A stretch of DNA of 64,000 nucleotides from Amoebophrya sp. A120. Lineage: Eukaryota; Protista; Dinoflagellata. The stretch's first letter is position 1. Every line of letters begins with the position of its first letter. This document shows, one piece after another, positions 14,070 to 64,000 of the stretch. The notes below the pieces were generated by a model. The model did no database searches and was not told where the DNA came from. It worked only from the letters and a program-made list of their open reading frames with translations. The stretch is taken from positions 13,363,713 through 13,427,712 of the forward strand of contig CAJINV010000001.1 in assembly GCA_905178155.1 (NCBI GenBank), written 5' to 3'. A program made the position numbers and the translations under genes.

Positions 14070-16685
14070 TTATGGTTTTGGCTTTTTTGGGGGCCTTTGG
14101 AGTATCGTCTCGTCAACCTTCTTCACACTGCGTTCGGCGTCTCTTTTGAAAACAAAGACATCCTCTCCTATGCACGGTCCTGAGCCAGCTTGGTTTGAGA
14201 TACACTCCGCAGTCCGTCGGTCGCGCGTGTCTTCGAGCGCGGCGCGCAGGACAGGAATCGCGCCGATGCGTCCTTCCCGAACGGCAAAAAACCGCGCGAA
14301 ACGAAACATTCCGGAAATAGCGGCGGAGAACATACCGAAGATTCTACCCGACATCAGATACCCTGCAGCTTCTGCGAGCGCCGCACGCGTGAAGCTGGTG
14401 ACGCCTTGCTGTTGACTGTCATCGAGACCGCCGCCCTCCGCTACGAAATGGAGAAGCGCTCCAATCTCTCCGTATCCTGGTTTCACAGCGACCTGCTGCC
14501 AAAAAGTAGCCTGCAAAAAATCCCAGGCGGGAATGCCCAAAGGCTTCCCGTCCGACAGGCTGCACACCGCCCTGGGCTGCATTTCCTGTTTCCTTGTTAT
14601 CGTCCCGTTTTTCGCGGTCGTTTCGGTCGTCACCCGCAGAGCGGGGCTGACGAAGCCCGGACCGGAGCTGAGTTCCATCCAAACGGACCGCCGGTAGTCC
14701 CAGCTCTGAAAGAGCTCGTCCAGAATGTAGCAGGTGTCCAGTGCGTGATCCGGGACGATCTGGTAGCGCCCATTTTTCCCCGTCTGCCCGGCGTTGTACT
14801 CTTTCTTCTCGAAGAGCATGTAGCCGAACCAGGAGTGGAACAGCTGCTCCAGATCGACGTCCGTCGGCCCCCGCGAGACTTTTCGGCCAGGCTCCCCCAG
14901 TAACGGACACACTTGTGCCGCGTGCGAAGTGACCACAACAGTGTGGAGTTTCGCATTGTGGTTTTTCTCAATGTACCGCTGCAGGTACCGCTCCGCACCG
15001 TAGGTCCTCTGGAAGGTTTCGCCAGGGTTACGGAAAAAGGATGTGGAGGAATCTTCGTGGCGTGGGCCCAGCGGGTAATTTTGGAACACCGCGGTCTTGA
15101 TCAGAATGTCCACACGGAAATCGTCCATGCTTTTCACCACGTCGCTAATCTGAAGATTTTTACTTTGGCTTCGATTTTTCTCAACGGGCTATGAAAACCG
15201 GTCACCAGGATCAGTTGTACTGCTACAAAGACAATGAATGAAATGAATTCATTAGCTTTAAACGAGGTAGCTCGGAGCATCAGGTTTTCTGCTACTAAGC
15301 ATGTACTCGCTGGTAATCTTCCTCTGCTCCAAAATCGTAGATAAAGCACTTCAGGCGTGTGAAATCGGGGCGAAGAATTGTGTGGATAATGGAGTCACAC
15401 GCCGTCATCGAAGGCACGCCAAGGTAGAGCATTTTTGCACGCCCCCACTCAGATAACCATTTGGCCGTGTGGTAGCCCACACCGTGCGTTGCGTCAGTGA
15501 CCAAGATATTGCGGCCCTGTAGTTGTTCGATAAATTCTTCTCGAACGATCATGCCGATTCTAAAAATCTTCTTGACATTTTCTGATTTGACAGAGAGGGA
15601 TTCCATAGTGTAACGAAAAACAACATACAACAGTACAACTTACGCCGAATTTCTGGTGCGTTTCATCGTAGGTTTCCAGAAACGCTTCTTCCAACGGCCT
15701 GTCCAGCACGGTTTGGGCAGCAAAGGTGAGCGCGATGGGTACCACTACAGCCGTCCAGTAGAGGAATCCTATGACGAACGAGCCCCGACACGCGATGTTT
15801 TTGACCGTCAGCTTTTTCTCATTGGGCACGAGGTCCTGTGGCCGCAAAAGCAACGCCTTCACGTTGTGCGTTTTGGACATGTAAATTTCCGCTTCGAGTT
15901 CGCCCTTCCACCAACAATAGCTGGAGTAGTAATTCCACATGAAGGACACAACCACGACCGCGACGATAACACCGAGAGTACCCTGTGCCGTTTTGTCGAC
16001 CGCCAGCGCATCGTCCGGGCGACCAACTTGCACGTCCCGATTCCCGAAGTAGTGCTGGACAATGGCCACGTAGTAGTCAGGTCCGCGGAGAAACACAAAA
16101 TACCCGACGGAGGCGAACAGCAACGCGAGGTGCCGGGAGAGCCAAATCAGGTCGAAAAAGCACCGGAAATGACCGTCGCCAACGAGCACGAGGAAAAACG
16201 TGAAAAACAGCGTGAACAGGAAGCCAAGCATGAAATCGCCGAACCCCTACCAAATGCAAAAATGTCTGGGTCTGGAAAAATTCACGTTTGTCATGCTTGT
16301 CTGGCGTGACTCTTAAATCTGTCATGCACGTTCCCAAGAGCTCCGTTTTTCTGTGATGCAGAGGCACAGTTTGTCATGCAGAATAGGCAACACCTAGGAG
16401 CTCAGAAACTTGTCGTGCTGAGCCAGCATTCGTAGCCTCATCATGAGACGCTACCCAGCATCACAAGTTTCCAGACCCAGACATTTTTACTTTTGATAAC
16501 CCCACACGCCAGACGAAATCCGGAGTAGCGTCCAGGACTGCCGCCGCCGCCGGCTGCCTTTTCGCCTGCGCAAGTAGGGAGTCCACCTGCTCTGGTAACG
16601 CGGAGAGCCGCTCGAGCAGCTGCTCCGACAAACCATTCAGGCTCAGCATCGGCGGCGCGCTGTTGGAACCGGTATCCAGTCCCAT
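14070..16685 (-). CDS. Multi-TM protein fused to a short-chain dehydrogenase-like Rossmann domain; interrupted by introner 16248-16498
   Basis: The first exon (MGLDTG...DFVWRVG) joins ORF 15560-16231 (several hydrophobic helices) after removal of the element. It is followed by ILVTDATHGVGYHTAKWL (TGxxxGxG-like) and VDILIKTA via a GT-AG intron into ORF 14070-15140. Confidence 0.65.
16248..16498. mobile_element. MITE-like introner element, copy 1 (251 bp, 31-bp TIR, 5-bp TSD ACCCC)
   Basis: Left TIR taccaaatgcaaaaatgtctgggtctggaaa versus right tttccagacccagacatttttacttttgata (28/31 complementary). ACCCC occurs at 16243-16247 and 16499-16503. A near-identical second copy lies at 33785-34036. 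Confidence 0.92.
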
Positions 16686-33220: not shown

Positions 33221-35897
33221 TCACCTCAAAATGCACGGGGGAATGCGCGGCGCAGGTCGCTGCTTTCGTACCGTAGTGCCAAACGTCGTTCTGCCGTGGA
33301 ATTCCTTGCACCCCGTCCCTGGCAACAACTGCTGCAGCTGCTTCGCCCTGCTCTGCGCCTTCCAGAAGAGTCCGACGTTCGACATCGCGCTCTCGTGACT
33401 TTCCCGCACGACACTTGGTACACTTCTAACCTCGTCCGCAAAGGGAACCCCGTGCTCTTCGCGCTCATCCAACAGTAATGCCGGTCTCGCTGTCGAGGGG
33501 GCGGTGGTAGAGGTGTAGGGCGAGGAGGTGCGCCCAGGGAAGGGTGAGGCCGTTGTACGGTCGAAGCTGCGCTCGGAATGGTCTGTCGGTCTTTTACCCT
33601 TGTTTTCTTGTTCAACAATCGCCGCAGCTGATGCTGTTGCAGCTGCGGTCGATGGCAATAGTTCCACTCTTTGCTGGCCTGGCTGCACCGTCGCCTCAAG
33701 ACGTCGACCGTTCGCTGCCGACTCTGTTACTGTTTCGGCGGTTAAAAGGGTCTCATTGGCGCCATTATGTTCGACGCAATTGGATATCAAATGTAAAAAT
33801 GTCTGGCTCTGGAAGAATTCATGTTTGTCATGCTTGTCTGGCATGACTCTTAAATCTGTCACGCACGCTACCCAAGAGCTCCGCTTTTCTGTGATGCAGA
33901 AGCGCAGTTTGTCATGCAGAATAGGCAACACCTAGGAGCTCAGACACTTGTCATGCTGAGCCAGCATCTGTAGCCTCATCATGAGACGCCACCCAGCATC
34001 ACAAGTTTCCAGACCCAGACATTTTTACATTTGGTATTGGACGAGTTCTTACTATGTGCTACTTCCGGTAGTTCCTTTTCGGGCGTGGATACTGCACCAA
34101 TGAGCAAGGAACCGTCAAAGCCACCTGCCGGACTGACGACCAAAGAGGACTCGTCGACCTGCATTTGCACGTCGCCTTGCGGCTCTTGCATGTAGTCGTA
34201 TGCAGGTCCTCCTCCTGGATTTCCGCCTTCTTGCGACGGGAGATGGGCAGCTCCCAGATTTCGATGCCCCTGAGCTTGTGCGGCGTAAGAGAGGCATTCG
34301 AAAAGCTGCGACATTGGTGATGACGACACCGACTGCGTCGTAGCGACTGCGTGCATTGCAGGAAAGCGCATCTGATCGTCAGGAAAGGACTGAAGGGCGT
34401 CGTGTTGGTGGTCACCTTGCGCCGCCGCTTCCGCGGAGAACAAGTTCCGCCCCTTCATCTCTGTGTGCAGAAACTCACTCGTTTCGCGTGCAGGAGGTGC
34501 CTGTATTTCAACGCCCGTCGGCATATTGCTTACAGAACCCATTCCTCCTCCGTATTTCTGCGCTATGAGCTCCAGAGAAAGCGTCGAACGCGTTTTCTTC
34601 CACGCGGAAAAACAGCGGTGCAGCAGCTTGAGGCTCTCCCAGGCCCGCTCTTTTGCAGCAGCGGCCCGTGCTAACATGTCCTCGCGCTCCCTCGTCAAAA
34701 TCAGTCGCGCAGCACCACGACGAAGGGAGTCTTGGTGCTGCCTGTAAGCGTCCCTTTGGCGCGCTTTTTTGCTGACGCGGTTTACTGCCCAGGACCTGTA
34801 TTATTCCACAAAAAAGCGATCGCGCTGAAATCAATTGCTCAGCCTGTCAAGAGACGGATTTCAACGTTGTTCCATATCACGCATAGTTAACTGCAGTACT
34901 ACGGAACCAATATATTCATCCACCATTACCTCCAATTCGTGAGGAGTGGCGGAACGACCTTGCCAAGTCTGAATTCTTTCGCCACGATTCCTGCACACGT
35001 CAAGGTTTTCCGCTCGCTCGCACGCTCTAGCCACCGTCGGAGCTTGAAGCGCAGCCGGCATTGAAGGACGTGCTGGGATAAATCAGTTCGTTTGGAAGTG
35101 CGAAAAGAACTTGCTGATTCTATTGCTAATCTGATACATAGTGACTTGCAGAATTCAGTCGAAAGAATGAAAAGTTTGAATTTCAAATTCACCACGAGAA
35201 CTCTCGTGAAAAAATCAAATCCTTCTACCTGCCGTGCAAGATCCCCCATCAACCTCTTACGCTTGCCGGCAATCGCGAGCTCGATCCAGGCTCGGATGCA
35301 GGTCTTTTCGATTCTGCATTTCGCAAACAGATTCGCCCTGCCGCGAAGGCGGCGCTCCTCCTGGTTCCGTAGTGCGTGACGCCGTAAGCTTCCGCAGGCA
35401 TTCTTCATGCGTCGCGTCTGGATGACGCTGGTTGCTCCATACTGTCGCTGCCGGAGGGCGTGTAGACAGTGAAAAGCGCGCCATCCCTGTCGCAGTATCT
35501 TTCTCCGCTCGGCAAGCTCGTGCCACCTGAGTATCGATAGCGCAATAAGTAATGAGGAAGATCAACATGTGAGCACAATGCAGCCTTCGACATAATATTT
35601 CCTCGCAAGTGCGAGCACTTTTTCTCATCACATGCGCGTCAGTGTAGCAGGAGCAGCTTACCGCCTCCACAAGCCAGCCTTCTGTAGCGCTTGGACCTTC
35701 GTAGCTTTTTGCGCGTAGCCTTCTTTCTGGTGGCTGCAAAAGTCCTTCCAATGCGCAAAAAAACGGCCTGCGACTTCCTGCTCAAGGTTCGCGCGCAAGG
35801 ATCGAATTACCCTACACGCAATCCGCTTCACCCAAAATCGCAACGCACGCACGTTGAGCTCATCCATGTTCGTTCGGTCTTTATCTGGCAAGAACCG
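33221..35897 (-). CDS. Multi-exon protein with Sfi1-like Trp-terminated repeats; interrupted by introner 33785-34036
   Basis: GT-AG-joined exons give recurrent units ending in F/LxxW (AGRFFAHWK, GLWRRWHE, TCIRAWIE, FKLRRWLE, LLTNWRSW, LLHRCFSAWKK). The frame continues across the element (KNSSN|CVEHNGANE). Confidence 0.6.
33785..34036. mobile_element. MITE-like introner element, copy 2 (252 bp, 31-bp TIR, 5-bp TSD TTGGA)
   Basis: Left tatcaaatgtaaaaatgtctggctctggaag versus right tttccagacccagacatttttacatttggta (28/31). TTGGA occurs at 33780-33784 and 34037-34041. Colinear with copy 1. Confidence 0.92.
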
Positions 35898-49042: not shown

Positions 49043-49600
49043 TCAATCTCCCCAACACAGTACTCGTTTGCTTATGTCTTTCACAAGAAATTCCATCCCG
49101 GGCAACAGCCCGGTCCCTGTCAACGCGCTGCATCCCACGATGCTCCAGTGGCGCGTTTGAATCTGGTCCAAATCCAAAAAGTCTTTTATCTCTACCGAAC
49201 TGAGCGCCCCCGGTAGGTCCTGCTTGTTCGCGAAGACCAGTAATGTCGCCCCGGCGAGCCGATCCTCTTTCAGCAGTTGTTGCAACTCGTCCTTGCAGTC
49301 CTGCAACCGCTTGCGATCCGTGGAATCGACCACCCACACGAGACCGTCGGTCGATTCGAAGTAGTTCCGCCAGTAGCTGCGAATGGTTTTCTGTCCGCCC
49401 ACGTCCCAGATGTTCAGCTTGTAGCCCAGAAACTCGAGGGTGAATATGTTGAAACCCAATGTTGGACTGATCTCGTCGATGGAGTCGCCGTTGAACTTTT
49501 TCACAATGGTGGTCTTGCCGGCGTTGTCCAGACCGAGGATCAGGAGCCGGAGCTCCTTCTCCTTTGTCTTGATTTTGCGGAGAAGCGTGAGGAGGCCCAT
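49043..49600 (-). CDS. ARL2: ADP-ribosylation factor-like GTPase 2
   Basis: [77 protein letters not shown]; 185 aa. Confidence 0.97.
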
Positions 49601-52079
49601 TTTTTGCTTTCTTCAAAGTTATGGTTAGCCACACTGAAACACGAATTCTATACTAATATGTATATTCTGTTTTAATAGCACGCACACAACATGTCCCGAG
49701 CGGTCACGCGGTGAGCCAGCGCATCACGATCGTCTTTTAGTTGCTTTAGGTAGCATCGTAGTTGTTCCTAACCGCCTCTTGCTGTTGCTGGTGGCGAAAA
49801 TGCTTGCGGCCGGCAATGTCTCGCGAAAAATGATCGTCCGTAAGCGCAATCTAAAAAAATGGCTTCTCGAAACTATGCCGCACAACCACCCTCGGCCTGG
49901 GGTATACCACCTTGCAAGATCTAGATCTCCCTTGGATTTTATGTTGCCCCTCTGAAAGAACAGACATCAACTCCATTCATGTGTGTCGTACGTAAATCTT
50001 TAAATCACGACAGTGGACTCGTGCACATTTTTTCACATACGATTCATTCACGTACCTCCAAAAGTACCGCAGAGTGCCTTTCCTTTATTCACGTAAGTTA
50101 GTACTGCAGAGAAACCCAAGGAGTCTCCTCCTACTTGACCACTTTTTTCTGCCGTGTCACATGATGAAACCATATAAATGTTCATTTTCACGTCTGCAAG
50201 CCGCGGCCCGACAAACATGTTTGCTATTAAGTGATTTTTGCTTTCGGTCATCGAAAAATTAAAGTACTAATCTGAGAAGTAAGCGCAGCATTCAACATGG
50301 GACATTCCTTCTCCGGCCGGAAAAAAGGCTTTGCTCCGACGAAGTTCCAGAAATCTTCAAATACGTCCAGTATCTATGGATCTACCCCCGAGAACCGGCG
50401 CTGCCTTCCCCTTCGCTCCGCCTCTACTTTCCAGAGGCTGTTAAATCGTAGGAGCCCTTCCATTTTGGTAATTCGGACTCGTCACTGCTACTGGAAGATG
50501 AAGATTCTGAGACGATTGACGATTGCGAAGCTGCTCGAGCTGATGGGGGCGGCGACGCGGGCGAAGTTGCGGAGCTCGACGAAGGTGTCGCGAAGCCGAA
50601 GCTGGCAGCTGCGGACATCGGCGACCCTGTCGTGGAGCTGGCACCTGGGTCTTCGGGTTTATCGATGAGTTTATAGCGACCGAACCCGATCGACGGTCTT
50701 GCATCGTTCCGATTTTCGTTGACGTACAGCATTAGTGCCTCTTTAGCCGCGGCGTGGGAGACTTCGAACTTTGGAAACGGCCGCTATCGAAAGAAAAAAC
50801 TGTTTCACTGTAGCGATCTTGCAAAGTCGCAAACTTTTTTCGGTGTCAGCCTCGATCTTTTTTTCAAAGCAGCTAAGAGCTGAAGTTTTGATATTCTCAC
50901 CCAATGGATGCTATTCATGCTGCTAGCTAACGGCTGCTTCAGTTAAGATCTTAAGTTAGCTAGTTAGGGTGGCAGGATGCATGTTGAAAACGGAAACCGG
51001 AAGCAGCGAAGCTTGAATGGTCACGCAGCACGCTCTAGGGCGTCATCACGCAGGTTCTCCTTCGCGCCTCTTAGCCGTGCCTGTTGTATCAAGATCTCCT
51101 CCCCCCCCTTCGCTTAACTATGTATCTGGAGCAACCGTAGCTAGCTTTTGAGATTAGATGGCACGACATCTTCAAACAAAAGACATGCCAGATTTCCGGG
51201 TCGCGATCGAGTTGAAAAAAATTCAGCTCGATGCCAACTGAAATTCAGCGACTTTCCAAGATCGTTACGGTGAAAAAGTTTCTTCTTACGATAGCCGTCC
51301 ACCGTCGTCTAGTACACTTTGTGGGTTGGCTCCGGTCATTCGTAGAAAATTCGCGAGCGGCATGAGCCGATGATCACCTGCCACGCATGCCTAATTAAAC
51401 AGACCTACCCCTACGAGGAAACCCAAGCACCATCTACCTCTGCCCTTCAGCCTGGCGTTGGATTTGGGTATGGTGTGACTCCCTTCACCAAGTATGGAGG
51501 CCGCGCCCGGAGGGCGATATTGGTAGCCAAGTAAGCTGCGAGCCGCCGCCGGCTCCACCACTTCCCCGGGGCCCTCCGTAGAGGGCCGCGGGCAACTACG
51601 GTCGCCCGCACGCTCCTGCGATGCGCATTGAACACGAAACCCTGGCCCGGATATTTCGTAGCGGGGCATCGTTAGTTACCTTTCTAGCCCCCCCCACGCG
51701 GTAGGGGCGGTTATTTCAAGGCCACCGCGCCATCGCGCAAAACATTACGCACGACGCGGGGGCAGGGGGCGAAGAGCCCGGGCCTGCGCAACTTTTGCAA
51801 ATTTTCCAAAAACTCGCGGTGCCTGCCGAGCCAGCACAGCCGCCCACTTCGGGCGCGGGTGAGTGGCAACAACCCACGGCACACTCATTGGGCCTTTGTT
51901 ACATGCCCCCACTCGCTTCTAACGCGTCTCTTTTTTTGTTGGCAATCGCGAGGGTATGACGCGTGCGCGCGCCCCGCCTCCGGGGCGCCCTTGCCGGGCA
52001 GCCAGTTTCTTGGCCTGGCGATGGGTTTGAGCTTTCGCGCGCTTCCGGGCTTTTTCCCAGTTCCCAACTGGCCCAGGCG

Positions 52080-52360
52080 CTCTGGGCATTTTCGCCGGCC
52101 GCCCGCATCTGCCCGGCAGCTTTGGGGCCTGCGGAAGGATTGCAACGTTCCGCCATTTTTCGACTTCTTTCATTTCTCCAGTGGCCCGGGCGATCTGGGC
52201 ACTTTCGCCGTCGCCCCCGGGTTGGCAGTTTTCAAGCCTGCGGAAGGATCTGCGCCATTTTTCATCTTTTTCGATTTCCTAAGCGGTCCCCGAATTTGGA
52301 AAAGTTTCGCCGTTTGCTTCCACCAAGGCGCAACATTTTTCATTTTTTTCGCTAATTTTT
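52080..52360. repeat. Degenerate ~100-113 bp tandem repeat (about 3 copies)
   Basis: tctgggca(t/c)tttcgccg at ~52081 and ~52194; gcctgcggaaggat at ~52127 and ~52236; third decayed copy at ~52295. Confidence 0.55.
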
Positions 52361-52616
52361 GCAATCATCAAGCAGCCCAGGGCTTCCGAACAGGTCGCGG
52401 CCCTGCTGCCCAAACGCACCCCTTCCTCGGGGGAGATTGTCCATCCAAGGGCCCCCCAGAGGCCTCTGTCCTGCTCGGAGCGGGCTCGCCCTTCTTCGCC
52501 TCCCCAAAGTTCAAGCTTCCAAACTATCGCCACAGGTATCTCGACTGGGCTAATAAGTGGCATTTCAGCTAAATACTTCGTCCACAAGCTCGTCAACTGC
52601 TGCATCGTTCCCCGTT

Positions 52617-53213
52617 CTAAACTTGAAGGCTGAAAGGCTCCAACAGCTTGGGTTCCTTCGCCTTCGGCGTGGGCCGCAAAAAAGGCTGCTGAGATACTGC
52701 GCTCGCGGCGACAAAATAGTGCCTCAGCTCATCCTTGTCGGCATGCTTCTTGCTAACAAACACAGGTGCCGGCCTGTCTTCCATGACCTCGACCAGCTCC
52801 TTCATCAATGCAGCAGCGTCTCGCTCCAAGACAGGGCCCGGCTTGCTAGTGTCGGCTTCGCCCTGTTTAAGCATGTCGCGGATGAGCCGCGTCACCTTCT
52901 TCCTGGGTCCATTGCTTTGATCAACTACAACACCCAGATACGCCAGCCGCAACTCCTGCACCCAATTCGATTCGATGTCCGCAGCTATGGCCAGGTCCCA
53001 CCCGGTGCCTTTGCAAGTCTCATGCACTGGCGCGGCCGCAAGCAGTGCGGCTGTGGCAAGGACGCGAAAGGAAGTGCCCCCATGAACAATTAACTTCGGA
53101 AGGCTCAGAATTATCGCAACACTTTCGGGGCCGCCGAACTCGCGGTAAGATGGTGCCTTAGCAAAAAGAACCTGAGCCACACAAATGCGCTCAACATATC
53201 GGCAAATAGCCAT
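52617..53213 (-). CDS. Hypothetical ORF or decayed gene fragment in the mobile-like region
   Basis: 198-aa ORF with protein-like composition; flanking frames are broken by stops; no recognised motif. Confidence 0.3.
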   Translation of the reverse strand: MAICRYVERICVAQVLFAKAPSYREFGGPESVAIILSLPKLIVHGGTSFRVLATAALLAAAPVHETCKGTGWDLAIAADIESNWVQELRLAYLGVVVDQSNGPRKKVTRLIRDMLKQGEADTSKPGPVLERDAAALMKELVEVMEDRPAPVFVSKKHADKDELRHYFVAASAVSQQPFLRPTPKAKEPKLLEPFSLQV

Positions 53214-56200
53214 GGCGCCCGGGGGTCGCCGCGTGAATAAACCAACGCTCCCTCTGGACCGAAAAAAAGCGGGAGCACAAAAATACTCCGAGCTAGCGAG
53301 GCCCCCCGATTGGCATGGAGCCTAGCTCCTAGCGTATCAAACTCCGCCACCTTAGACTTGCAGTGACCAAGAACATCGCACGCCCTTGCACCAGCTGGTG
53401 CAGCGAGCAGACCCACATCATTGGCCCCCACTATCTCGGACTGTGGCTGAAGGCCAACACCAACCACGCAGCCGGCGTGCAAACTCACAAGGAGCAAAAA
53501 CAAACCAACGAGGAGACGCACGACGGGGCGCCCGTCAGCGAGACAGACACTCGCGTTCGTCGTGTCGAAAAACACACAACACCCAAAATACGAGCTGAAT
53601 CCACCACGATGGGTACTATTCGACGCACCGCTAGCCTACGGCAATCTACCACAAACATCGGCGACATAGCAGAGCCTGACACCTAGCACTTAGAATAGAT
53701 GAAGTACAGAACGCTAAAGGTCCGCCCCTTGCGAAATCTTCTCTACCTGTCAGCTGGCCTGCTGCAGCCCCCACCTGACTACCTCGCGACTTCCCCAAAA
53801 TCCTTCGAGCAGCCAAACCCCTTCCGAGGAAGCTCCGTGATACATACCTCGCAATCTGAAGCTCGAACGTGCCGTCCTAGAAAATACCGGAGTGAAGCAC
53901 GCAAACTGACCAAAAAGCGCCCAAAGGGCGCAAGGTAATAGGCTACACGATGCTAAGAAAACTTTCCAACAACACGGGAACAACACATATGCAGAACATG
54001 CTATCGTCAGGGGCCAGAGAGATAATACCACACGGGCCAGAGAATGGGCGCCCGAAGAAGACAAACGACACATAGATACACACCACCGCCGACGAACAGC
54101 CGCGAAGGCAATAGCAATACCCTGACCGAACATACCCCATCCGGGAGTGAAAGTTGCGGGCGCGGCGCCTGTCCTCAATCGCTGGCATTAGTGGGCCCAC
54201 TCCAAGATCTTGACGCGGCCCGGAGGGCCAGGGGCTGGGAGAGTGTGGAAAATCTGCGGAGGCAGAATTCTCTATCAATCTAAAGCTGCGCCCTTGATTG
54301 AAGGACGCTGCGCCCGTTTCCAGCCTGCCAGCCTTTATGCCTGCAAGCTTTTTGGCTTAACGGATTCGAGCCGCCAGCGCCACACCTGCAGACCCGGGCA
54401 AAGTACAGCCCAGGGCAGATTGACCAAGAAGCACCGTGTGCATGTACTGTAACACTACTTCCGGCAAACTGAAACGATCCCCTCCCTGGTATCTCCGAAA
54501 GGTCGTCTGCCAGGAAGAATACCGCAAAGAAAAAGTGAACCCGCGCAACCTCTCCAGGCGGGTAGAAGGATCACAATGCACATTCTTCAAGTTCAATGTC
54601 GCTAGAGGCCAGAGCAGAGCGCGTTTATATGTAGAAAGCAAATAGGGGAAAACAGGCTAGCCAGAAAAAAAAAACGACCCTCAACACCAGACAGAAACTG
54701 CAACGCGGACTCTCCTTCCAGGGCGGGCAGCCTGACGAATACGAAGATGGATCCACGCAAACGTTTGCTCTAGCTCCCACTCCGTGGTCCGATGCGAGCC
54801 CGCTCCTGTCGATTGGGGGTTTGAGTAGGAGGCTTCGCCTTTCCCTTTCCACCACTATAGCCCCCACAACAAAAAGCCCCAGTCCGCGTAGTCGGGAACG
54901 AAGAAATTGAAAAAAACAATACCACGTCGCCCACAATGAGCATCCGGTCCGGGCAGTCCATTAGAGTGACAATGGCAGAAACGCCGCGCTGTCCCGCGTT
55001 CCTCTTTGTGGCTCTGTTGCTGCCTGGTTCTGCCCTTCCCTCCCGCCTCTGTGACCCTGCCGATTCTGGTAGGGATTCCGCCTCCCCCACCCTTCCGATT
55101 TTGCACTTCGGAAACTTTCGAAATGTCCCCACCTCAGCCAGCTGTTTCCCATTATTTGAAAACCTTCCACAATTTGTTCTATCTATCATCTTGTATATGC
55201 AGCGCAGTCCCCAAAAACTAGCGACCGCTCAGCCACTCAAGTGTGGCAAGAGACGAAGACGAGCTACGAAGTGGGCCCCGGCAATATTCTTCAACTTGGG
55301 GTCTTGGCCGGCAAAATAACTCAGCGCGTCGCGCTGGTCGCGATCTTCGGTATCTTTGGCTGGGAACCTGTCGCTGGTTAGTTGTATCAAGCGGCAAACA
55401 TTTGTCCAGTAGTTTCCTTGTTTCTTTTTACAACATTAATCCATCGCCAGGCGTAAAATGTATGACCTCCCGAGTCGAGCAACACTAAACGCAGAACGCC
55501 AAACCGAAAACCAGAGTAACTCTAGTTGCGCGCCACGTACTGTTCGGGCCCACTACTTGAGAAGCCAGAATGAAAGACACAGGAAGCGCGGCTGCGGCCG
55601 GGCGCCATGCCTCGTTCCCCAAATCCCGCAGCGCAAAGCGCGGCCCGCCGGCCGGGCGCCAGGTCGCGACCAGTCGGGTTCGATTGTCGCAGCCCCTATC
55701 CCGCTCGCGCGCCGGGTACTGGCGTAGTGATTCTCCAATCTCGGTCGACTGGATTTGGATTCGTTCCCAAATCTTGCGGTCGCACTTTCGCAAACCCCAA
55801 CCCCCCCCGGCCGAAAAAGCGGCTAGCGGCCCGCTCCGCAGTTTTACGGCTGTGACTTGTTCGGCGACCAAGCCGCGGCGCGCCGAGTCCGGGTTAGAAA
55901 ACACGAACGCAACATTACATTTAGATTCCAAATCTCCGCCGGGCCCGGATTCCGAAAGAACACGTCGGACTTTAAGTCCCAGCCCGCTGTGCGACCGCTC
56001 CCGGGGCCCTCGCCTGCGCCGGCTCTCGCCGGCTTCCTCGGTTTTGCGCTCCTGGCTCCGCCCGGGAGCGGGACGCCGCGGCCTCCGGCAAATAACGGGG
56101 CGAGCGAGGCCGCGCCATGGGTAGCCGGCCCGCCGCGTCGCATCGCCGTAGCAGCCTGCTACCCCACCGGGCCGGTCGGGTCCTGCATTCAAGGCCTTAG

Positions 56201-57007
56201 CAGCATCGCGGGGCGTATCGCGGGCGGCGGGCGTGAATCAGAAGGTCACGCGCGCGCCAAGTGCGAACCCCGCCGCCCCTTCTGCCAGTTCAGTATCTTA
56301 CAGCGGGTGCGTGACAGTGGCCGCCATGGCTCGACAGGGTTCGCCTTCTCCGATCTCTCTAGCGCCGCGTCTTCGTAGCCTACAGGGTCGGGGCCTGAAC
56401 GGCCGACGTTTCGCGATTTTTCTACTCCCCATAACATGCACATTCCTGCATCTCTTTTTTCGAGGTCCTGTGGCGACACCAGATGCCTACCTGTATATCC
56501 AGCTGGGGCACTTGTGGTCATCGGGGCGGCAATCGGCGTCCCGACCATCATTTTATTTGAACACGCCAAAGCAAGCGGTCCCAACTCACATGTCCCAGGC
56601 ATAGTTGTTCCCGCAGGCTACCTAGCTACCCCGGGTGACCTACCACATAAATCAGTAGCAACACAACTCTTCACGAACTTCTTCGCATGTTCGAACAGAC
56701 GTTCAATAGCACCTACATCTACGCAATGAATTGGTCCTGCCCGTACATCATAGCGCTAGCGGTGGAGTTCTTTCATTTACGCGCGAGCGCTAGCGGTAGA
56801 GTCCGTATTTTCGTGCTTTCCCGCACTGCCGAAAGACGGGGGCACTCATTACATTTCAGAAGATCCTGTTTCTAGATTGCAGGATGTTTTCAGCTTGACA
56901 CAAATTTCGAATATCGTGCTGCCCATGGACGTTGGGCTTGTGTCGGCTTTAATTTCGATCGCCAGTATCGAATTGAGAACGATGGCGCACATGTCACACG
57001 CCACAGG

Positions 57008-57655
57008 TCAATCGCAAGCATCTGTGCCAACAAAAGATGTGTCATGCCTGGCCCCTAATGTGTGCCGCGTGACACCTGCACCACCAGCCCCACGCGTATC
57101 TCCTGCCGGCGAAGACGACGGCTCTGCTTCCGCAGATACTGGTCTAGAGATAGATAGAAGAGATTCATCATCTTCGTCTTTCTTCGGCGATACTCCGGCT
57201 CTTCCCCTGCCACCGGACTGCCTCCTTGGTTTGGCGACACTACGCGCGGGCGCGGATGCAGACTGCTGAGATGAAGAACGCGCCCGTCTTCCAGCATGGG
57301 AATCTTGATCTTCCGTTTGCGACACAGGAGGACGGCTAGCCGCAACTACCGGATCAGTTGCAGATACTGGTGCGGGCTTTGCACGCTTTTCTTCGTACCT
57401 ATCGGATTCATCCGAGGTATCCGGCAGTGCGAGAGCAGCCTCATGAAGTTCGTCCTGTTTTGCAGCCTCGAATGAAAGAAAAGCTTCATCGTCCGCAATC
57501 TGTGCCGCGCGGCTTCTTGCCGCGACTCCTCCTGAGCCGGCGTGATTTGCTTGATCATTATTACCCTCTGCAACCCCACTGATGTCACCGGCAGCACTGG
57601 AGAGCAACTCAACATCCTTTTGTGGCACAGAACCACCACTGGTCTGATCCATCAC
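57008..57655 (-). CDS. Hypothetical low-complexity ORF downstream of the KDZ element gene
   Basis: 215-aa acidic/Ser-rich ORF preceded by an acceptor-like TACTAAACAG; no motif. Confidence 0.35.
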   Translation of the reverse strand: MMDQTSGGSVPQKDVELLSSAAGDISGVAEGNNDQANHAGSGGVAARSRAAQIADDEAFLSFEAAKQDELHEAALALPDTSDESDRYEEKRAKPAPVSATDPVVAASRPPVSQTEDQDSHAGRRARSSSQQSASAPARSVAKPRRQSGGRGRAGVSPKKDEDDESLLSISRPVSAEAEPSSSPAGDTRGAGGAGVTRHTLGARHDTSFVGTDACD

Positions 57656-57902
57656 GCCCTGTTTAGTAATATTTCTAGAGAGTGACCCGGCCGGTGGGGT
57701 TGGTCATAGCATGCGGGAAAAAGTGAAAATTTGCGACTTTTGTTCTAAGACGACCTGACTCAACTTGAAAAGTTGACTTTTTTTTTGAAAAGCAAAAGAG
57801 CAGAAAAAAAAGAAACAGCCCGAGAAAATCGCTGGAAGTTGTGCAGGACCTACCGCGCGCGCGCGCGCGTTTTACCGGATTCGGCTTGGCTTTTTTTGCA
57901 AG

Positions 57903-58145
57903 TTTTCCCGGATTTGCCAAATTCATCAGCTTCACCAGCTTCGCCAACTTTCTCGGATTTGCGAAATTTGGCAAATTCATCAGCTTCACCAGCTTCACCA
58001 GCTTCGCCAGCTTCGTCAACTTTCTCGGATTTGCGAAATTTGGCAAATTCATCAGCTTCACCAGCTTCGCCAGTTTTCTCGGATTTCCGAAATTTAGCAA
58101 ATTCATCAGCTTCACCAGCTTCACCAGCTTCGCCGACTTCGGAAA
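57903..58145. repeat. Minisatellite of 27 phased 9-mers in higher-order units of 45/72/54/72 bp, flanked by (CG)7-8TTTTAC(C/A)GGATTC direct repeats
   Basis: 9-mers such as attcatcag, cttcaccag, cttcgccag, ctttctcgg and atttgcgaa are in perfect register. Flanking repeats at 57854-57882 and 58173-58199. Confidence 0.9.
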
Positions 58146-58874
58146 TGACCGGGGCCCGTGTGTTTTGTTTGACGCGCGCGCGCGCGTTTTACAGGATTCT
58201 ACCTCTGCCGCCTGTAGGTGGCATGTTTCTGCTTCGTGTTGTGTCTGCTAGACAAGAAACACAAGACGCGAACGAAGAAACAGCGGGCAAGGAAACAGCG
58301 GGCAAGCAGACAGGGCCGAGACAAACCAACGACAGACCGAGGGCGATCCTACCTCTGGAGCGAACGGCAGACCGAGGCTGGTCAGTCTTCTGTAGCGAGC
58401 GGCAGACCGAGGCGGACCCTCTGAAGCGAGCGACAGACTGTGACGGGTTCCATGTATGCTTATATGTATGCTGGTCAGGCAAGGGGGCGCCACCGGCCGA
58501 CCCAGCGACTTGGTACAGAACACAAAACAAAAAGCGAAGGCGCTGAGGCAGTCGGGCCCGCGTCCCACGCGCTTGGGGGCGCCGGTGCGCAACGAGGCGC
58601 CCCAGCCTCTTACTCTTGCGCGTGCTCTACAAAGGGTCTACCTGCTTAGCGCGAGTCGCTCATCGCCGCGGGAGTCAGGTCTCATTATCCTCGGTTGCCA
58701 AAGTTCGGAGGCCTTCAGGCATAGCACACAGGACCACCTGCATGGCGTAGATACGTCCACGCCACAAGTGTCCACCTGTGTAAGTATTCAGAAAAGAAGC
58801 GCAGGCGCGGAAGCAGGAGAGCCCGCTTGCCACTGTTGCACATAGCTCACTCACAGGCCTGCATAGCAGAGAGC

Positions 58875-61800
58875 TCATTTCTTCCCAACCGGGCGGAAAA
58901 GCCCCTGGCGGTCCTTCGTTTTGAGCCCGTTGAACCTCCGCACCAGGGACCGCAGCACGAAGTTGAAACTCTTCCCCTTCATGTTCGTCAGGGATTTGCG
59001 GTAGCCGCTTAGCCAGCTGTTCGTCTGCTCCGCCACTGACGTGTTGCGGATGCCCTTCTCCGTACACCACCGCTTGTTCACCCCCTTGATTTTGTACTTG
59101 TCGCCGCACTTGTGGTTTCGGGCGTGCCATTTGTCGATCAGGAATTTGACGGAGGGGACTTTCCCGGGGTGGTGTTTCTCGATGAACGGCGCCAGATGGC
59201 AGGCGTCGTCATGGAGCACGGTCCTCAGCTGCGCGCCATGCTTTCCCACATGGGAAACCACCCAGGCTGCCTTCTGCTGTGTCGTTTCGGCTGCCAGTAG
59301 CTCCTCCACGGCGACAATGGCGCCCGTCTTTTCGTTCGATACCACGAGGAGCCCGCCCGTCCGGTTCTTGAACGTCTTGGGCTTGGTCTTGTCTTTTTTG
59401 GCGCACGTGTGCGGAACGGCTGCCGGTTTTGCTGCCGGCTTTTTGTTTGGCGAGCCTGTGTGGTCAGTCAGTGTGGTGCTAGGTTTCAATAAAACGGAAC
59501 ACACAAAACCCAAAGAAATTAAACTTGCGCGGCCAAACAGCTAAAATAAAAAGCGCAAGGCTCTGCAAACCTTTCGGGCGCCCGCGCGGGCGCGCGGCCG
59601 CGGAATACGGGCAGGCTTCCCCGGCTTCCTTGACGCGGTTCACTTTTTGATTGCCATCGATGGCAGCCGTTTCCATCTGCGCCAGCTCGTCCTCCGCACC
59701 GATGGGGGTGGTCTTGATGTCATTGAGGGCGAAGGCGTTCAGCATGACAGGCATCGGCGCCACGACGAAGCCCGTCCAGCGCAGCGCGAGAAGCTCGTAG
59801 GCGCAATAGGCTGTCCAGAGGTACTCCGTGACGCGGTTGGTGGCAAGCTTGGTGCGGAGACCTGCGCACCAGGCTTCTGCCATTCCCGTAGTCCGGGACC
59901 GGAACACGCGGTCCCGAAAAAGTTCGACCTGGTCGACGGCAATCCCCAGGGTCGTCGTCAGGAAGAAGACCCCGCGCGCCTTCAGCTCGTCCACCGTTTT
60001 CCAGGTGTTCTCATGTTTCCCGTTGTTTACAACGTAGCCGCAGCGGTGCCATGCGCCGCACAACTTAGAGCAGCAGCGCTTCCCGACGTGGATGGCGTCG
60101 CACGTCGTCAGATTGGACTGGAGAACTTGCGCGGTGGTTCGGGCAGTGGCGCCGGTAAGTGCGCAGCCGCACTTAATGCAAACGGTGGCGAGGGGCCCAT
60201 ACTCCTGTGGGGGGGCGCCGCCATGCAGAAAGTTGATGAGTTCCTCGTCTTTCTGGCGCTGCGCTGCTGCCGCCGCATCCTCCGCACCGGGGGACATGCT
60301 TATGTCCTCCGCCTCGTCTGCGTTGGGGCCCTGCTCGTCCCGGGAACGAAGGCGGCCGGGAAGAGTGTAAGCACGGCCCGGAACGGCTGCGCCCCTCTTT
60401 TGTGTCTTTTTTCCGAATTCCTGCTCACAAGCCTCGCGGAAGAGGTTCGGGTTGGCCTCGAATGGCTTCAGGTCATACGCCACAAACCGATAGCGGTCGG
60501 AAGTGGCGACGAACTCTGCGAGCTTCGCGTACAAATCGGCCGGGCCGATTCGCGTGGCTTCGCCGAGTTTCACAGGGGCGCCAAACATCTCGACGGTGAC
60601 CGGGCTAACCCACTCCGCGGCCCAGTCCCCCACGATGTTCGGGAAGAATTCCGGGTGCCAACGTTGGCCGGCCTCCTTCGCGCCCTTCGCGTTCTCGGCT
60701 ACGTCCCGCGTGGCGTGGCGGTGCAGGAGGAAGAGCATAAACGAAGGCGCCAAGCGCTCGACCTCCTCGTCGATCGCTTGACTTGCCGGCCGGCTTCTTG
60801 GGGAGGTCTGCCGCTCTCCGGCCTGGAGGAACCGGATCGGGAAGTAGAACGTCTGGAAGCGAGTCTTGTCGGGCTGGGTGACTGGTTTCAAGAATCGCGG
60901 GGCAACGTTCCCAGTCCCAAACCATTGCCAGGTCGGATCGATTTCGCGCATTGCCGCGGACTTGATCTGCCGCGCTGGCAATGTGTCCGCGGACACATAA
61001 TTGCAGAAGCGAGTAATGTCCCAACACTGCGTATCCGAGACCTCATCCATCCACATGAGCCGCGCCCCGAGCGATGCGTAAAAGAATGCGCTGTGCTCAT
61101 CCACCCCGCGCTTGTCGGTGCAGAAGACTTGCGGCTTCACCTGTGTGAAATAGCGCCCGAAGGCCGCGCGCACGAGTTTCCGCAGCAAGCCCTTCCCCTG
61201 TCTTCCCCGGGGGCTGAAGAGGTAGTTGAACCGATGCAGGGGGGCTCCCGTAACTGATGCGGCAAGCGCGTCGAGGAGCAGCTCCATCGTCTCCCTGTCG
61301 GGGCCCTTGTCATAGCGGTGCGCTGCTTCTTGTTCATCTTTTTCAAAGAGGGAGGAGAAGAAGTCCTGCACGCCTTCAAAAGACGGCGCGCGCCCGGCTC
61401 TCTGCATTGCGTCCAAAGCCGTGGCCCAGTCTGGGTTGTCGATGAGCTGCTCCGGGATGTCAATCGGGGCAAAACGGCAGGCCATGTGGTCGGGCGTTAA
61501 TTTGGTGAAGACCCTGCCAGCAACATCGTAAACGCAATTGCGCAACGCAAACCACCGCGGATTCTGATCAAACCCCGCGCGAGATACGAAAGCCGCCTCG
61601 GATTTCTTCAGGAGCATCTCGACCTTGTTGCGCATAAGCTTGCCAAACTGCTTGAGGTATTGGGACTCGAGGCCTGCTACCTGCCGCACGTCCGACCACA
61701 GGCGCTGCACTAACGAGGAGGCCTCCGCCTCGCAACATTCATGCCAATGCTGCTGCCACATGTGCCACTTTTGGTCGACGAGGGTGAGACGGTGGCGGGC

Positions 61801-63045
61801 GAGCAAATACAACAGGGCGACGCTGTGGTAGGTCGAGTATTGCTCCCCGGCCTCGTTCTCTTTTTCCCGCGCGTAGGAGGCCAGGACGCGACCAAGGTAG
61901 GCCGGCTCCGTTTCGCCCACCTCCTGACGAAAGCGGCCCGCCCAATCCTCCAGCCCGCCACGAATGGAGGGGATGTTGAGTCCTTCTGGGCCGAAGTGGT
62001 GCGCCCCGGCCCGCGCTGGTGCGGGAACAATTGGGCCGGGGTTCGCAGGGGGTGGGGCGGCGACCACCTGCGCCGCGACCATCTGCTGCGGCTCCAAGTT
62101 GTCGGCCTGGTTGGGTATTGTGTTGGGCGAGTCCGGTGCATCACCGTCATCGTGGAAAAGCCGGCGGCGGCTGTTTGGGAACGGGCTGCGTTGGTTGGCC
62201 ACGCTGTGCGCCGGCGTGCGCGGTTGTGCCGCCGCTGGGGTGAGTCCCCCGAGATATTCCAGGTGGGTGCCGTCGACGTCGGTGATGGTTCCCAAGTCCA
62301 TGAGCTTCCCGAGGACCTCCTCGACCCGTTCCGCCTCATCCTGAAGGCCCTGCGCCGCCACAAAGGCATCCAGGTCCGCCCTGGAGTAGAGCTGCTCCTG
62401 GCTAGCGCTTCGGCGGAAGAACCGCCGCAGCAGTGCCCGCACCTTCTGCGCGAAGGCCTGGCCTGGAGATGCGCCGGGCCCGGTGGCACCGCCGAGCAGC
62501 GCCGCGGCCTTCCAGGCGGGAAGCCGGGCCGCCACTTTGCGCGGATCGATTACGACCGCGCCCGCTAGCCCGCCGGCGCAATCGAGCAGGGCGGTGAGGG
62601 AACGGAGCGCCTCGTAGTGTTTGTTGTGCAACAGCAGCGGCACCAGGGCCGCCGCGTTCATTCCTGGCTCCATAACGACGACGGTCGCCGCGACAGTATG
62701 GACCGCGATCGGCCTGCCGAACATCAGGGCCAGTGTGGCGACGTCCCCGACGTCACCACACTGGCCCGCGCGCTTGCCGCAGAGCCAGCGCAGCCGGCTC
62801 GGTGGCAACCCCGGGCCAAGGTCCGTCGCCTGCCGCACCGCTGTCCAGAGGCAGCTGTTTCTCCGGGCGTTGTTGGGGTGTACGAACTGGCCACAGGGCT
62901 TGGCGGCGAGCTTCGTCCAAATTCCTAGGACGTAGCCCCCGCAGAGGCAGAGCGCCTCGACAAATAGCACCGCGGGCAGGACGAACAACATCAGCAGCAA
63001 TCGCGCCGCAGTGTTTGGCGCCTCCTCCGCACGTTGGCGCGCCAT
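58875..63045 (-). CDS. Polyprotein: OTU-like protease + winged helix + D5-like SF3 helicase + CxC/KDZ DDE transposase (1351 aa, 2 exons)
   Basis: GT-AG intron 59456-59570 (branch-like CTGACTGAC) joins ORFs 59479-63045 and 58875-59513 in frame (PRGRPK|GSPNKK). OTU-like: NSCLWTAV..GDVATLALMFGRPIAVH..LLHNKHYEAL. D5: FDQNPRWFALRNCVYDV, Walker A PRGRQGKG, Walker B LMWMDE, motif C GTGN. Transposase: CxxC..CC..C..H, AAIDGNQK, HDDACH, IDKWHARNHKC, NTSVAEQTNSWL. Confidence 0.85.
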
Positions 63046-63201
63046 TGTTTTCGGTGGTGTGGTGTGGTTGGAGTCGTGTCTTTCTGTCTCTTTGACTTTA
63101 AGTAGCGAAAAGCTGAAGGAGGTGAGCTACACTCCTAAGATTGTCGCTCGTGCTATTGTGTGCGCGCGCGTGTGTTTGGTGATTATGCGGGCAGGCCGGT
63201 C

Positions 63202-63484
63202 GGTTTGCGAGCACTCCGGTCGCTCTCTGTCGAATGTCTGAGCAGTGCAGCTTGATTGGCCTCTCGGTCTCTCTTGCTTTTCCGTGCTTCTACTTTGCCA
63301 GCGCAACAATGCAAGCGAACGAGCGACGAGCCTGCCCGATGCGGCTTGCGGCCAAGCTCCTGGGCATGTTGTCTCTCGCTCTGTTTCCGACGACGCAAAA
63401 CATGCGCGCCCTGACCTCTCTCGGGTTTGCGAGCACTCCAGTCGCCCTCTGTCGAATGTCTGAGCAGTGGAGCTTGATTGGCCT
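63202..63484. repeat. 61-bp direct repeat, two copies 222 bp apart
   Basis: ggtttgcgagcactcc(g/a)gtcgc(t/c)ctctgtcgaatgtctgagcagtg(c/g)agcttgattggcct at 63202-63262 and 63424-63484. Confidence 0.85.
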
Positions 63485-63490
63485 ATCGTT

Positions 63491-64000
63491 AAAAGGGAGA
63501 ATGGAGGTCACCCAGTTGCCGTCTTTTTCCAATGTTAACAGGGGGAGTGGACGTGCTCCGGCTGCCATCTTTTTCCAATGTTGAAAGGGGGAGCGGAGGC
63601 GAGCCGGCTCGCATCTTTTTCCAATGTTAGGAGGAGGAATGGAGGTGACCCGGTTGCCATCTTCTTCCTATGTTAAAAGGGGGAATGGAGGTGATCCGGA
63701 CATGGTCCACCCGCCATGTTTTTCCAATGTTAAAAGGAGGAATGGAGGCGACCGGGCTGCCATCTTCTTCCTATGCTAGAAGGGGGAATGGAGGTGATCC
63801 GGACACGGTCCGCCCGCCATCTTTTTCCTATGTTGAAAGGGGGAGCGGAGGCGAGCCGGCTCGCATCTTTTTCCAATGTTAAGAGGAGGAATGGAGGTGA
63901 CCCGGTTGCCATCTTCTTCCTATGGTAAAAGGGGGAATGGAGGTGATCCGGACATGGTCCGCCCGCCATCTTTTTCCAATGTTAAAAGGAGGAATGGAGG
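63491..64000. repeat. Satellite of 46- and 57-bp monomers with a 252-bp higher-order repeat (runs off the window)
   Basis: Monomers aaaagg(g/a)ggaatggagg...gccatctttttccaatgtt. The pattern 46+46+57+46+57 gives 252, and gagcggaggcgagccggctcgc recurs at 63591 and 63843. Confidence 0.9.

Follow-up and report, generated by a model that had tools for sequence, protein, structure and literature searches.

A superfamily 3 helicase fused in frame to a KDZ-type transposase in the dinoflagellate Amoebophrya sp. A120: a candidate gene of a small mobile family

The DNA considered here (the window) is a stretch of 64,000 nucleotides from the genome of the parasitic marine dinoflagellate Amoebophrya sp. 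A120, near the right-hand end of which, at 58875-63045 on the minus strand, lies a gene whose product joins a D5-type helicase of superfamily 3 (SF3) to a transposase resembling those of the Kyakuja-Dileera-Zisupton (KDZ) group. An ATG at 63045 opens a minus-strand frame of 1188 stop-free codons, from which 63045-59571 is kept as exon 1 (amino acids 1-1158, comprising a hydrophobic leader, an OTU-like motif, the helicase, a linker, a CxC zinc cluster, the first transposase Asp and an AT-hook). A second minus-strand frame, 59540-58875, carries exon 2 (58875-59455), which supplies the rest of the KDZ-type DDE core (HDD at residues 1240-42, DxxHxxxHxC at 1266-75 and E1301) and ends in a stop codon at 58875-58877. 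A putative GT-AG intron of 115 nt at 59570-59456, T-rich, with CTGAC before its AG and with a GC content of 43% versus about 60% in the adjoining coding DNA, would join the exons into a product of 1351 amino acids. Two homologous proteins (P0036 and P0055, see below) match both exons colinearly, in exon 1 as far as 59572 or 59872 and in exon 2 from 59405 onwards, so that homology backs the spliced 1351-residue frame that had been proposed from the letters of the window and its open reading frames (ORFs) in what is called here the sequence-only reading. The exact 3' splice site is best left between 59456 and an alternative acceptor at 59432 (1343-residue product), because the latter scores slightly better, by 0.7-4 bits, against all three relatives compared. 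In three RNA runs, which may or may not contain this strain, no read was placed on the gene. The GC content of third codon positions (GC3) is 0.62-0.84 in every 50-codon block of exon 1 (mean 0.78), as compared with 0.54-0.74 in seven host ORFs, and over the whole product it is even (0.62-0.88 per 50 codons), with no seam at the linker between helicase and transposase. The fusion of helicase and KDZ transposase is real, and it is likely that this is a genuine fused gene belonging to a small mobile family.

Within the helicase, the D5_N domain (residues 425-548; 61402-61773, minus strand) is matched by the Pfam family PF08706 with E 1.5e-7 and 32.3 bits, against a cut-off of 22.4, while the SF3 (AAA+) core (residues 580-780; 60706-61308) is recognised through PHROGs and NCBIfam matches, through alignment A2 and through an hhalign comparison with alignment A5 (99.2%). 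A C-terminal domain (residues 830-900; 60346-60558), which has no Pfam match, occupies the position of the D5 winged helix and is common to the closest helicase relative, P0001, the tblastn match of which reaches 60331. Profiles of primase-helicases cover residues 403-734, that is, their helicase part only (PHROGs E 7e-11; NCBIfam E 1e-14). The residues that we take to be the Walker A lysine (K618), the Walker B pair (D667/E668), motif C (N713) and the arginine finger (R729) are all in place, and the D5_N and SF3 domains with intact Walker A Lys and Walker B DE of the sequence-only reading are upheld. The Walker A motif itself reads GKG rather than GK[S/T], Gly619 replacing the Ser or Thr; this is equally so in 21 of 23 aligned relatives, while in the remaining two the aligned row begins only after the Lys. 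At Walker B most relatives have NE, and the window protein and P0001 keep DE. No Pfam match to DEAD or Helicase_C was obtained in the helicase, nor any to a primase, and a profile of the polymerase-like region of certain relatives (see below), run against all six frames of the window, found nothing (best E 0.31), in agreement with the earlier statement that no primase or polymerase motif is visible in the window. Ring-helicase activity is predicted.

An acidic, Ala-rich linker (residues 896-951; 60193-60360), at about the position where some relatives of the helicase carry a polymerase-like domain, joins the helicase in frame to the transposase. The transposase begins with the CxC zinc cluster (residues 953-1003; 60037-60189), the cysteines of which (C956, C959, C991 and C996) are kept in all four stand-alone relatives. 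The cluster has no direct Pfam match in the window; relative P0026 shows a weak CxC5 match (E 0.033), with CxC5 and then KDZ in order at E 0.03-0.04. The first catalytic Asp (IDG, D1130) and an AT-hook-like RPRGRPK follow at 59572-59661, the DG being invariant in alignment A4 and P0036 having a weak AT_hook match in the same place (E 1.3). D1130, HDD 1240-1242, D1266xxH1269 and E1301, to the acidic members of which we ascribe catalytic roles, align with three full-length relatives. Exon 2 alone matches the Pfam family KDZ (PF18758) with E 1.4e-4 and 22.1 bits over profile positions 51-211 of 217, which is below the cut-off of 26.6. An Atlas search with the transposase gave 0.96 with its ten best family-bearing matches in agreement, the third match being a cluster with KDZ on 27% of its members. 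The CxC cluster, AT-hook and KDZ core with three acidic residues and DxWHxxxHxC put forward by the sequence-only reading are thus present residue by residue and aligned with relatives, with the Pfam KDZ match below cut-off.

The stand-alone relatives in question are four ENA proteins, P0026, P0036, P0051 and P0055 (three of 427-477 residues and one 234-residue fragment), which begin 6-78 residues before the CxC cluster and share with the window protein the four Cys, the DG, the GRP hook, the HD, the DxxH and the final Glu; a 652-residue member of the P0036 cluster has a longer leader without helicase likeness. Their profile (A4) matches residues 953-1337 with E 8.7e-51, and since they cover this whole stretch the transposase would be complete in itself, with the helicase as an N-terminal addition. 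It appears to be a complete member of a divergent KDZ-like clade, the other known members of which are without a helicase. Taken on their own, these four proteins form a clade of short CxC-KDZ transposases in which an AT-hook-like insert follows the first Asp, and they lie under the Pfam KDZ cut-off. All predicted catalytic residues of both the helicase and the transposase are present in the window protein.

The region before the helicase (residues 1-400) drew no match in a phmmer search of exon 1 against 1.84 billion representative sequences. Its hydrophobic leader (residues 14-45; 62911-63006), described as such in the sequence-only reading and borne out by a Kyte-Doolittle hydropathy of 2.7 at residues 16-34, could be a membrane anchor or a read-through intron (it ends near CTAG). 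At 62602-62883, C65 and H143 stand in what we take to be an OTU-protease-like context, a pattern fitted after the fact (in OTU proteases the Cys would be at a helix start and the His in a late strand). The OTU domain claimed earlier comes down to this motif match, Pfam, PHROGs, PDB and fold searches lending it no support, and the winged helix claimed for the helical segment at residues 197-266 (62248-62457) likewise gave Pfam matches only at noise level and lies in a low-confidence model. Two single-sequence AlphaFold models had low confidence (predicted local distance difference test, pLDDT, 39 and 40), and Foldseek with the second returned nothing at E < 1. The likeness of the Cys/His segment to those of the relatives P0017 and P0093 was not significant (shuffle p 0.16-0.67). 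Part of a preprint on the subject proposes that vOTU domains process replication polyproteins in polintons and Tlr1-like helicases (10.1101/2024.03.18.585575), and because of this, self-processing by the OTU-like segment may be regarded as a reasonable guess by analogy.

The same phmmer search gave 83 matches in all, of which 79 fall in the helicase region and 4 in the CxC region. A quick tree was built from 67 rows, with 15 of 81 matches left out as too short, and in it the window protein pairs with P0001 (Shimodaira-Hasegawa-like approximate likelihood ratio test, SH-aLRT, 98) inside a group of 23 rows (SH-aLRT 100) that stands apart from 44 virus- or phage-type rows. A primase Pfam domain occurs in none of the 23 versus 19 of the 44. 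The one named member of the group comes from Prorocentrum cordatum (P0094, a fragment annotated as CAK0838916.1). In four relatives (P0015, P0017, P0093 and P0094) the helicase runs on into a region with motifs that we would call polymerase-A-like, on the pattern of TVpol. The fullest is P0093 (L001), the single frame of which, 1923 residues long on a contig of 6580 nt, runs from the helicase through the polymerase-A-like motifs and a Cys/His segment to a C2H2 finger and then a DDE-like region with the motifs DG, HD, DxxH and TTxNE; for the last of these Atlas ranks a Mutator-like transposase cluster first (0.85), a lead only. Since the transposase is of KDZ type in the window and Mutator-like in P0093, this helicase clade would seem to have been joined to at least two kinds of transposase-like domain, with a polymerase-like part in some members and not in the window. 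The earlier placement of the helicase as D5/SF3 stands, while it had been overlooked that in one relative the helicase is joined both to a polymerase-like domain and to a DDE-like transposase of another kind. It is likely that the helicase stems from a family of helicase-polymerase-transposase elements associated with dinoflagellates, and that the branch of the window protein either lost the polymerase-like domain or never acquired it.

As observations in their own right, P0093 is a strong candidate for a self-synthesizing transposon, and the Prorocentrum gene model P0094 (CAK0838916.1) looks like a decayed helicase-polymerase element followed downstream by methylase-like and retroelement-like sequence, likely an annotation chimera. 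Searches for further helicase relatives found no loci in viral contigs (locus scans), no tblastn match in phages or plasmids, nothing meaningful in PDB sequences, and in metagenome scans no loci with helicase profile A3 and one short contig with P0093; among proteins of 1849-5000 residues, profile A3 matched 2 of 5032 word-seeded candidates.

Information on other copies comes from one DNA run, X1, which was used for contigs and is one of two runs of a single sample that contain 80-82% of sampled words; X1 is possibly the source of the window itself, and does not constitute independent support for the window sequence. X1 contigs span 58150-63470 entirely (8 of the 38 pieces and 40 of the 55 letter differences being listed). 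Window alleles have a depth of 19-20 where two alleles coexist (58619 and 60452), compared with 35-58 over the gene and 93-134 in the 3' flank, depth not being the same as copy number; this suggests two to three gene versions and a 3' flank present in still more copies, on the understanding that contig depth without a host-gene baseline gives no copy number. Contig 6 (59913-60451), which has 7 differences in 539 nt, bridges the end of the helicase, the linker and the start of the CxC cluster, so a second version has the same junction. The junction itself contains no repeat, target-site scar or shift in GC3. Further copies had been called for by the sequence-only reading, and with the junction present in at least one more diverged X1 version it is not a one-copy scar.

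Differences seen in other X1 versions are 4 extra nucleotides at 59882, an insertion with inverted repeats at 60492-60498, a premature end at codon 1012, which has become a stop, and a replacement of the Walker B Asp. Among 28 coding differences listed, 6 are synonymous and 22 are not, where 5.8 synonymous would be expected at random. These are several independently decaying versions, such as transposon copies give; the pattern is one of neutral decay after duplication, with the window copy still open and catalytically complete. The earlier description of an intact transposon accordingly survives for the frame and catalytic residues of this copy and fails for its decayed sister versions, and mobility is something that the element would be expected to possess. 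The polarity of 15 differences relative to homologues is mixed (7 favour the window, 4 the contig and 4 neither), and the idea that the window copy is derived relative to an ancestral consensus was rejected. The insertion at 60492-60498 in a sister version has inverted ends of about 21 bp and an overlap of 6-7 bp; that its inverted repeat might be the element's own end was also rejected, the repeat being absent from the window even when 3 mismatches are allowed. Separately, the 35 bp at 60167-60201, just after the helicase-CxC linker, also occur inside a long unrelated X1 contig, either as a relic or by chance.

On the 3' side of the gene, 58230-58873 is repeated more often than the gene itself (the X1 depths of 93-134 quoted above are sums over 58328-58861, and there are loose ends at 58873), and is likely to be a subterminal region common to shorter members of the family. 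Beyond it, 57856-58199 contains a tandem array (57904-58140) of 9-, 54- and 63-nt units between 27-nt direct repeats, a candidate zone for the left end. Upstream of the gene, a second tandem array of 46- and 103-nt units (63482-64000) runs off the window, and the right end of the element is probably beyond 64000.

The first 50 kb of the window are gene-dense, with, all on the minus strand, five long ORFs having clear Pfam families and an ORF at 49043-49600 that we take to be ARL2-like. The protein of this last ORF clusters at 90% with named Amoebophrya proteins, which places the host in the Amoebophrya lineage. Between about 51400 and the right-hand end there is no recognisable host-type gene, the 47 frames of at least 95 residues giving three weak Pfam matches, all below cut-off; the Pfam search of these flanking frames, which tests only weakly for capsids, revealed no capsid, packaging ATPase, PolB or integrase, and Rfam has no match in 50000-64000. 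Several other features of the window may be recorded. A 250-bp element occurs twice, at 16248-16498 and 33785-34036, the copies being about 92% alike; it has terminal inverted repeats of 31 bp and what appear to be target duplications of 5 bp. The second copy, situated between two ORFs, is possibly a miniature inverted-repeat transposable element (MITE) of the introner type, and at 50783-51295 about 510 bp bounded by 48-bp inverted repeats (87.5%) are likely to be another MITE. A minus-strand ORF of 199 residues at 52617-53216 has a coding-like GC3 of 0.62, no Pfam match and no counterpart in the protein collection, and is possibly an accessory gene or an exon of a larger element; a low-complexity minus-strand ORF of 213 residues at 57008-57649, just downstream of the candidate left-end zone, has a GC3 of 0.41 and belongs to no family.

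The reading towards which we lean, if only somewhat, is that this is a low-copy DNA-transposon gene of an Amoebophrya-lineage dinoflagellate, in which the KDZ transposase would cut and join the ends of the element, the SF3 helicase would open up the DNA of the element for copying by a polymerase taken from the host or from a sister element, and the OTU-like Cys65/His143 segment would release the helicase from the transposase. Ring helicases of this kind are hexameric and transposases dimeric or tetrameric, and it is because these stoichiometries fit badly in one chain that such a release is envisaged. Mobility, and copying rather than plain cut-and-paste, are thus steps that the predicted activities would allow, and the copying role is a weaker step than the existence of a fused gene of a small mobile family.

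Several points weigh against this reading. None of the 83 phmmer matches spans both the helicase and the window's KDZ clade, and word-seeded searches for the same fusion found none among 7992 candidates with exon 1 at near lengths and none among 4404 with P0026 at longer lengths (a weak test), so that the architecture which the sequence-only reading had suggested seeking in other proteins was not met with in exact form in protein searches. The closest helicase relative, P0001, stops directly after the helicase, and the transposase-like region of P0093 is not of the window's KDZ clade (hhalign 0.3%). Most of the 23 members of the helicase group are fragments from short contigs, for which lack of a primase means little, and the polymerase-A-like region of the relatives, recognised at motif level, has no polymerase match in PDB, Pfam or PHROGs. 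To this must be added the Walker A motif without its usual Ser or Thr, and the OTU segment, which has no match in Pfam, PHROGs, PDB sequences or Foldseek, no homologue for a profile and a model pLDDT of 40. A strain mixture may account for the X1 versions, there being no host-gene depth baseline, and neutral drift among copies is uninformative as to selection for the fusion. Lastly, neither termini, nor a target-site duplication, nor an inverted pair across the gene was found within the 64-kb window, and no empty site was observed. According to part of a published account, Zisupton and Dileera have terminal inverted repeats and 8-bp duplications and Kyakuja 7-bp ones, with CA..TG ends and without terminal inverted repeats (PMC12730594), and because Kyakuja lacks such repeats their absence is not disqualifying.

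A broader form of the same proposal can be offered tentatively, as having rather less than an even chance. Dinoflagellates may hold a class of self-copying DDE transposons in which a primase-less D5 ring helicase has repeatedly acquired a different transposase as partner, of KDZ type in the window and Mutator-like in P0093. The full members would have their own polymerase-A-like enzyme, and the Amoebophrya element would then be a streamlined polymerase-less branch, cleaving itself by means of its OTU-like segment and borrowing its polymerase.

Among the alternatives, the one that survives best is that the SF3 domain lends ATP-driven help to cut-and-paste transposition, being engaged in target capture or in loading or disassembly of the transpososome, with no copying of the element. 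Bacterial DDE transposases do have AAA+ partners, namely MuB, TnsC and IstB, and such a role would sit well with a window in which neither primase nor polymerase was found, with the low copy number, with the altered Walker A found throughout the clade and the NE rather than DE at Walker B in most relatives, and with the helicases that stand beside DDE transposases in AcademH and KolobokH. However, the D5_N collar, the SF3 core and the C-terminal domain are all kept, and four relatives fuse the helicase to polymerase-A-like motifs, which points to replication; this alternative is considered unlikely.

Distinctly unlikely, in our estimation, is that the gene is a young chimera, formed when a viral or polinton-like helicase gene came to precede, in frame, a KDZ transposase of the ordinary kind, the helicase having since been carried as a passenger with no role in transposition. 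All four transposase relatives stand alone, P0001 ends after its helicase, a stop-free linker of 56 codons arises in 32% of shuffles (making it weak evidence by itself), the differences among copies are neutral, and giant KDZ elements hold fixed nested insertions and extra genes, to go by part of the account of them (PMC12477816). Against this, the junction has neither repeat, target-site scar nor GC3 change, a second X1 version has the same one, and the order helicase-then-transposase recurs in P0093 with another transposase.

It is very improbable that the gene is non-mobile, whether as a host gene by domestication or as a piece of an endogenous polinton-like virus with capsid and polymerase genes beyond 64000, the X1 variants being strain alleles or a segmental duplication: the right end does lie outside the window, the X1 depth has no host-gene baseline and dinoflagellates carry many polinton-like insertions with primase-helicases (PMC10120064 and PMC12721341, in part), but there are no viral genes in the 47 flanking frames and no relatives in viral contigs or phages, the portions of those two papers drawn on here describe neither an intron nor a KDZ transposase for polinton-like viruses, and variants with a stop, a frameshift or an insertion are unlike alleles of a needed gene.

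Comparison with known systems helps to define what is new. Like KDZ elements, the window has a CxC zinc cluster before a D-D-E core with DxxH, a large multi-domain protein and subterminal-looking repeats, and KDZ elements are often giant with extra genes, as part of one account relates (PMC12477816); unlike them, the N-terminal two thirds of its protein are an SF3/D5 helicase, the Pfam KDZ match is below cut-off and the transposase falls in a divergent clade with ENA proteins. AcademH and KolobokH also pair a DDE transposase with a helicase, but their helicases, in the part of the description relied on here, are of the DEAD/Helicase_C type, i.e. superfamily 2 (PMC10799480), whereas that of the window is a virus-type SF3 ring helicase in frame with the transposase. 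The TVpol-S3H and AEP-D5 primase-helicases of virophages, polinton-like viruses and nucleocytoplasmic large DNA viruses share the D5_N domain and SF3 core, and helicase-only versions occur in Mavirus, as noted in a section of one paper (PMC3671162); the window differs in having no primase or TVpol, in its separate clade, in showing no capsid or packaging gene, and in its fused DDE transposase in place of an RVE integrase or tyrosine recombinase. Proteins of the P0093 type (JGI/ENA) have the same helicase clade, helicase-then-transposase in one frame and a Cys/His protease-like segment, but in them a polymerase-A-like domain lies between helicase and transposase, the transposase of P0093 looks Mutator-like and the Cys/His segment comes after the polymerase. 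Helitrons and polintons, finally, are likewise mobile DNA with a helicase or replication protein of their own, and there are vOTU domains in polinton polymerases, but the window has no HUH nuclease, SF1 helicase, protein-primed PolB or capsid.

The sequence-only reading spoke of a new class of helicase-encoding DNA transposon, which is an overstatement given that AcademH and KolobokH pair DDE transposases with superfamily 2 helicases (PMC10799480, in part). Its further remark, that no described element known to it unites KDZ, such a helicase and an OTU-like protease, holds good as regards helicase and transposase within the full-text literature searched, in which no fusion of an SF3/D5 helicase with KDZ or with any other DDE transposase was found; this literature excludes Repbase, subscription journals and supplements, and a Repbase entry is possible. 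The novelty would then lie in the SF3/D5 type of helicase and its in-frame fusion to KDZ, and not in a first pairing of helicase with DDE transposase. The DDE transposons of eukaryotes are regarded as cut-and-paste elements for which the host does the copying, and the elements that copy themselves, Helitrons and polintons, use other chemistries. If the proposal made here is true, it would offer eukaryotic DDE elements a way of transposing replicatively and would connect the replicases of polinton-like viruses with transposons. For Amoebophrya itself, part of the published genome description reports almost no DNA transposases, yet many transposon-like introns (PMC7789003), and because of that near-absence a divergent, overlooked autonomous transposase would bear on the question of what mobilises these introns.

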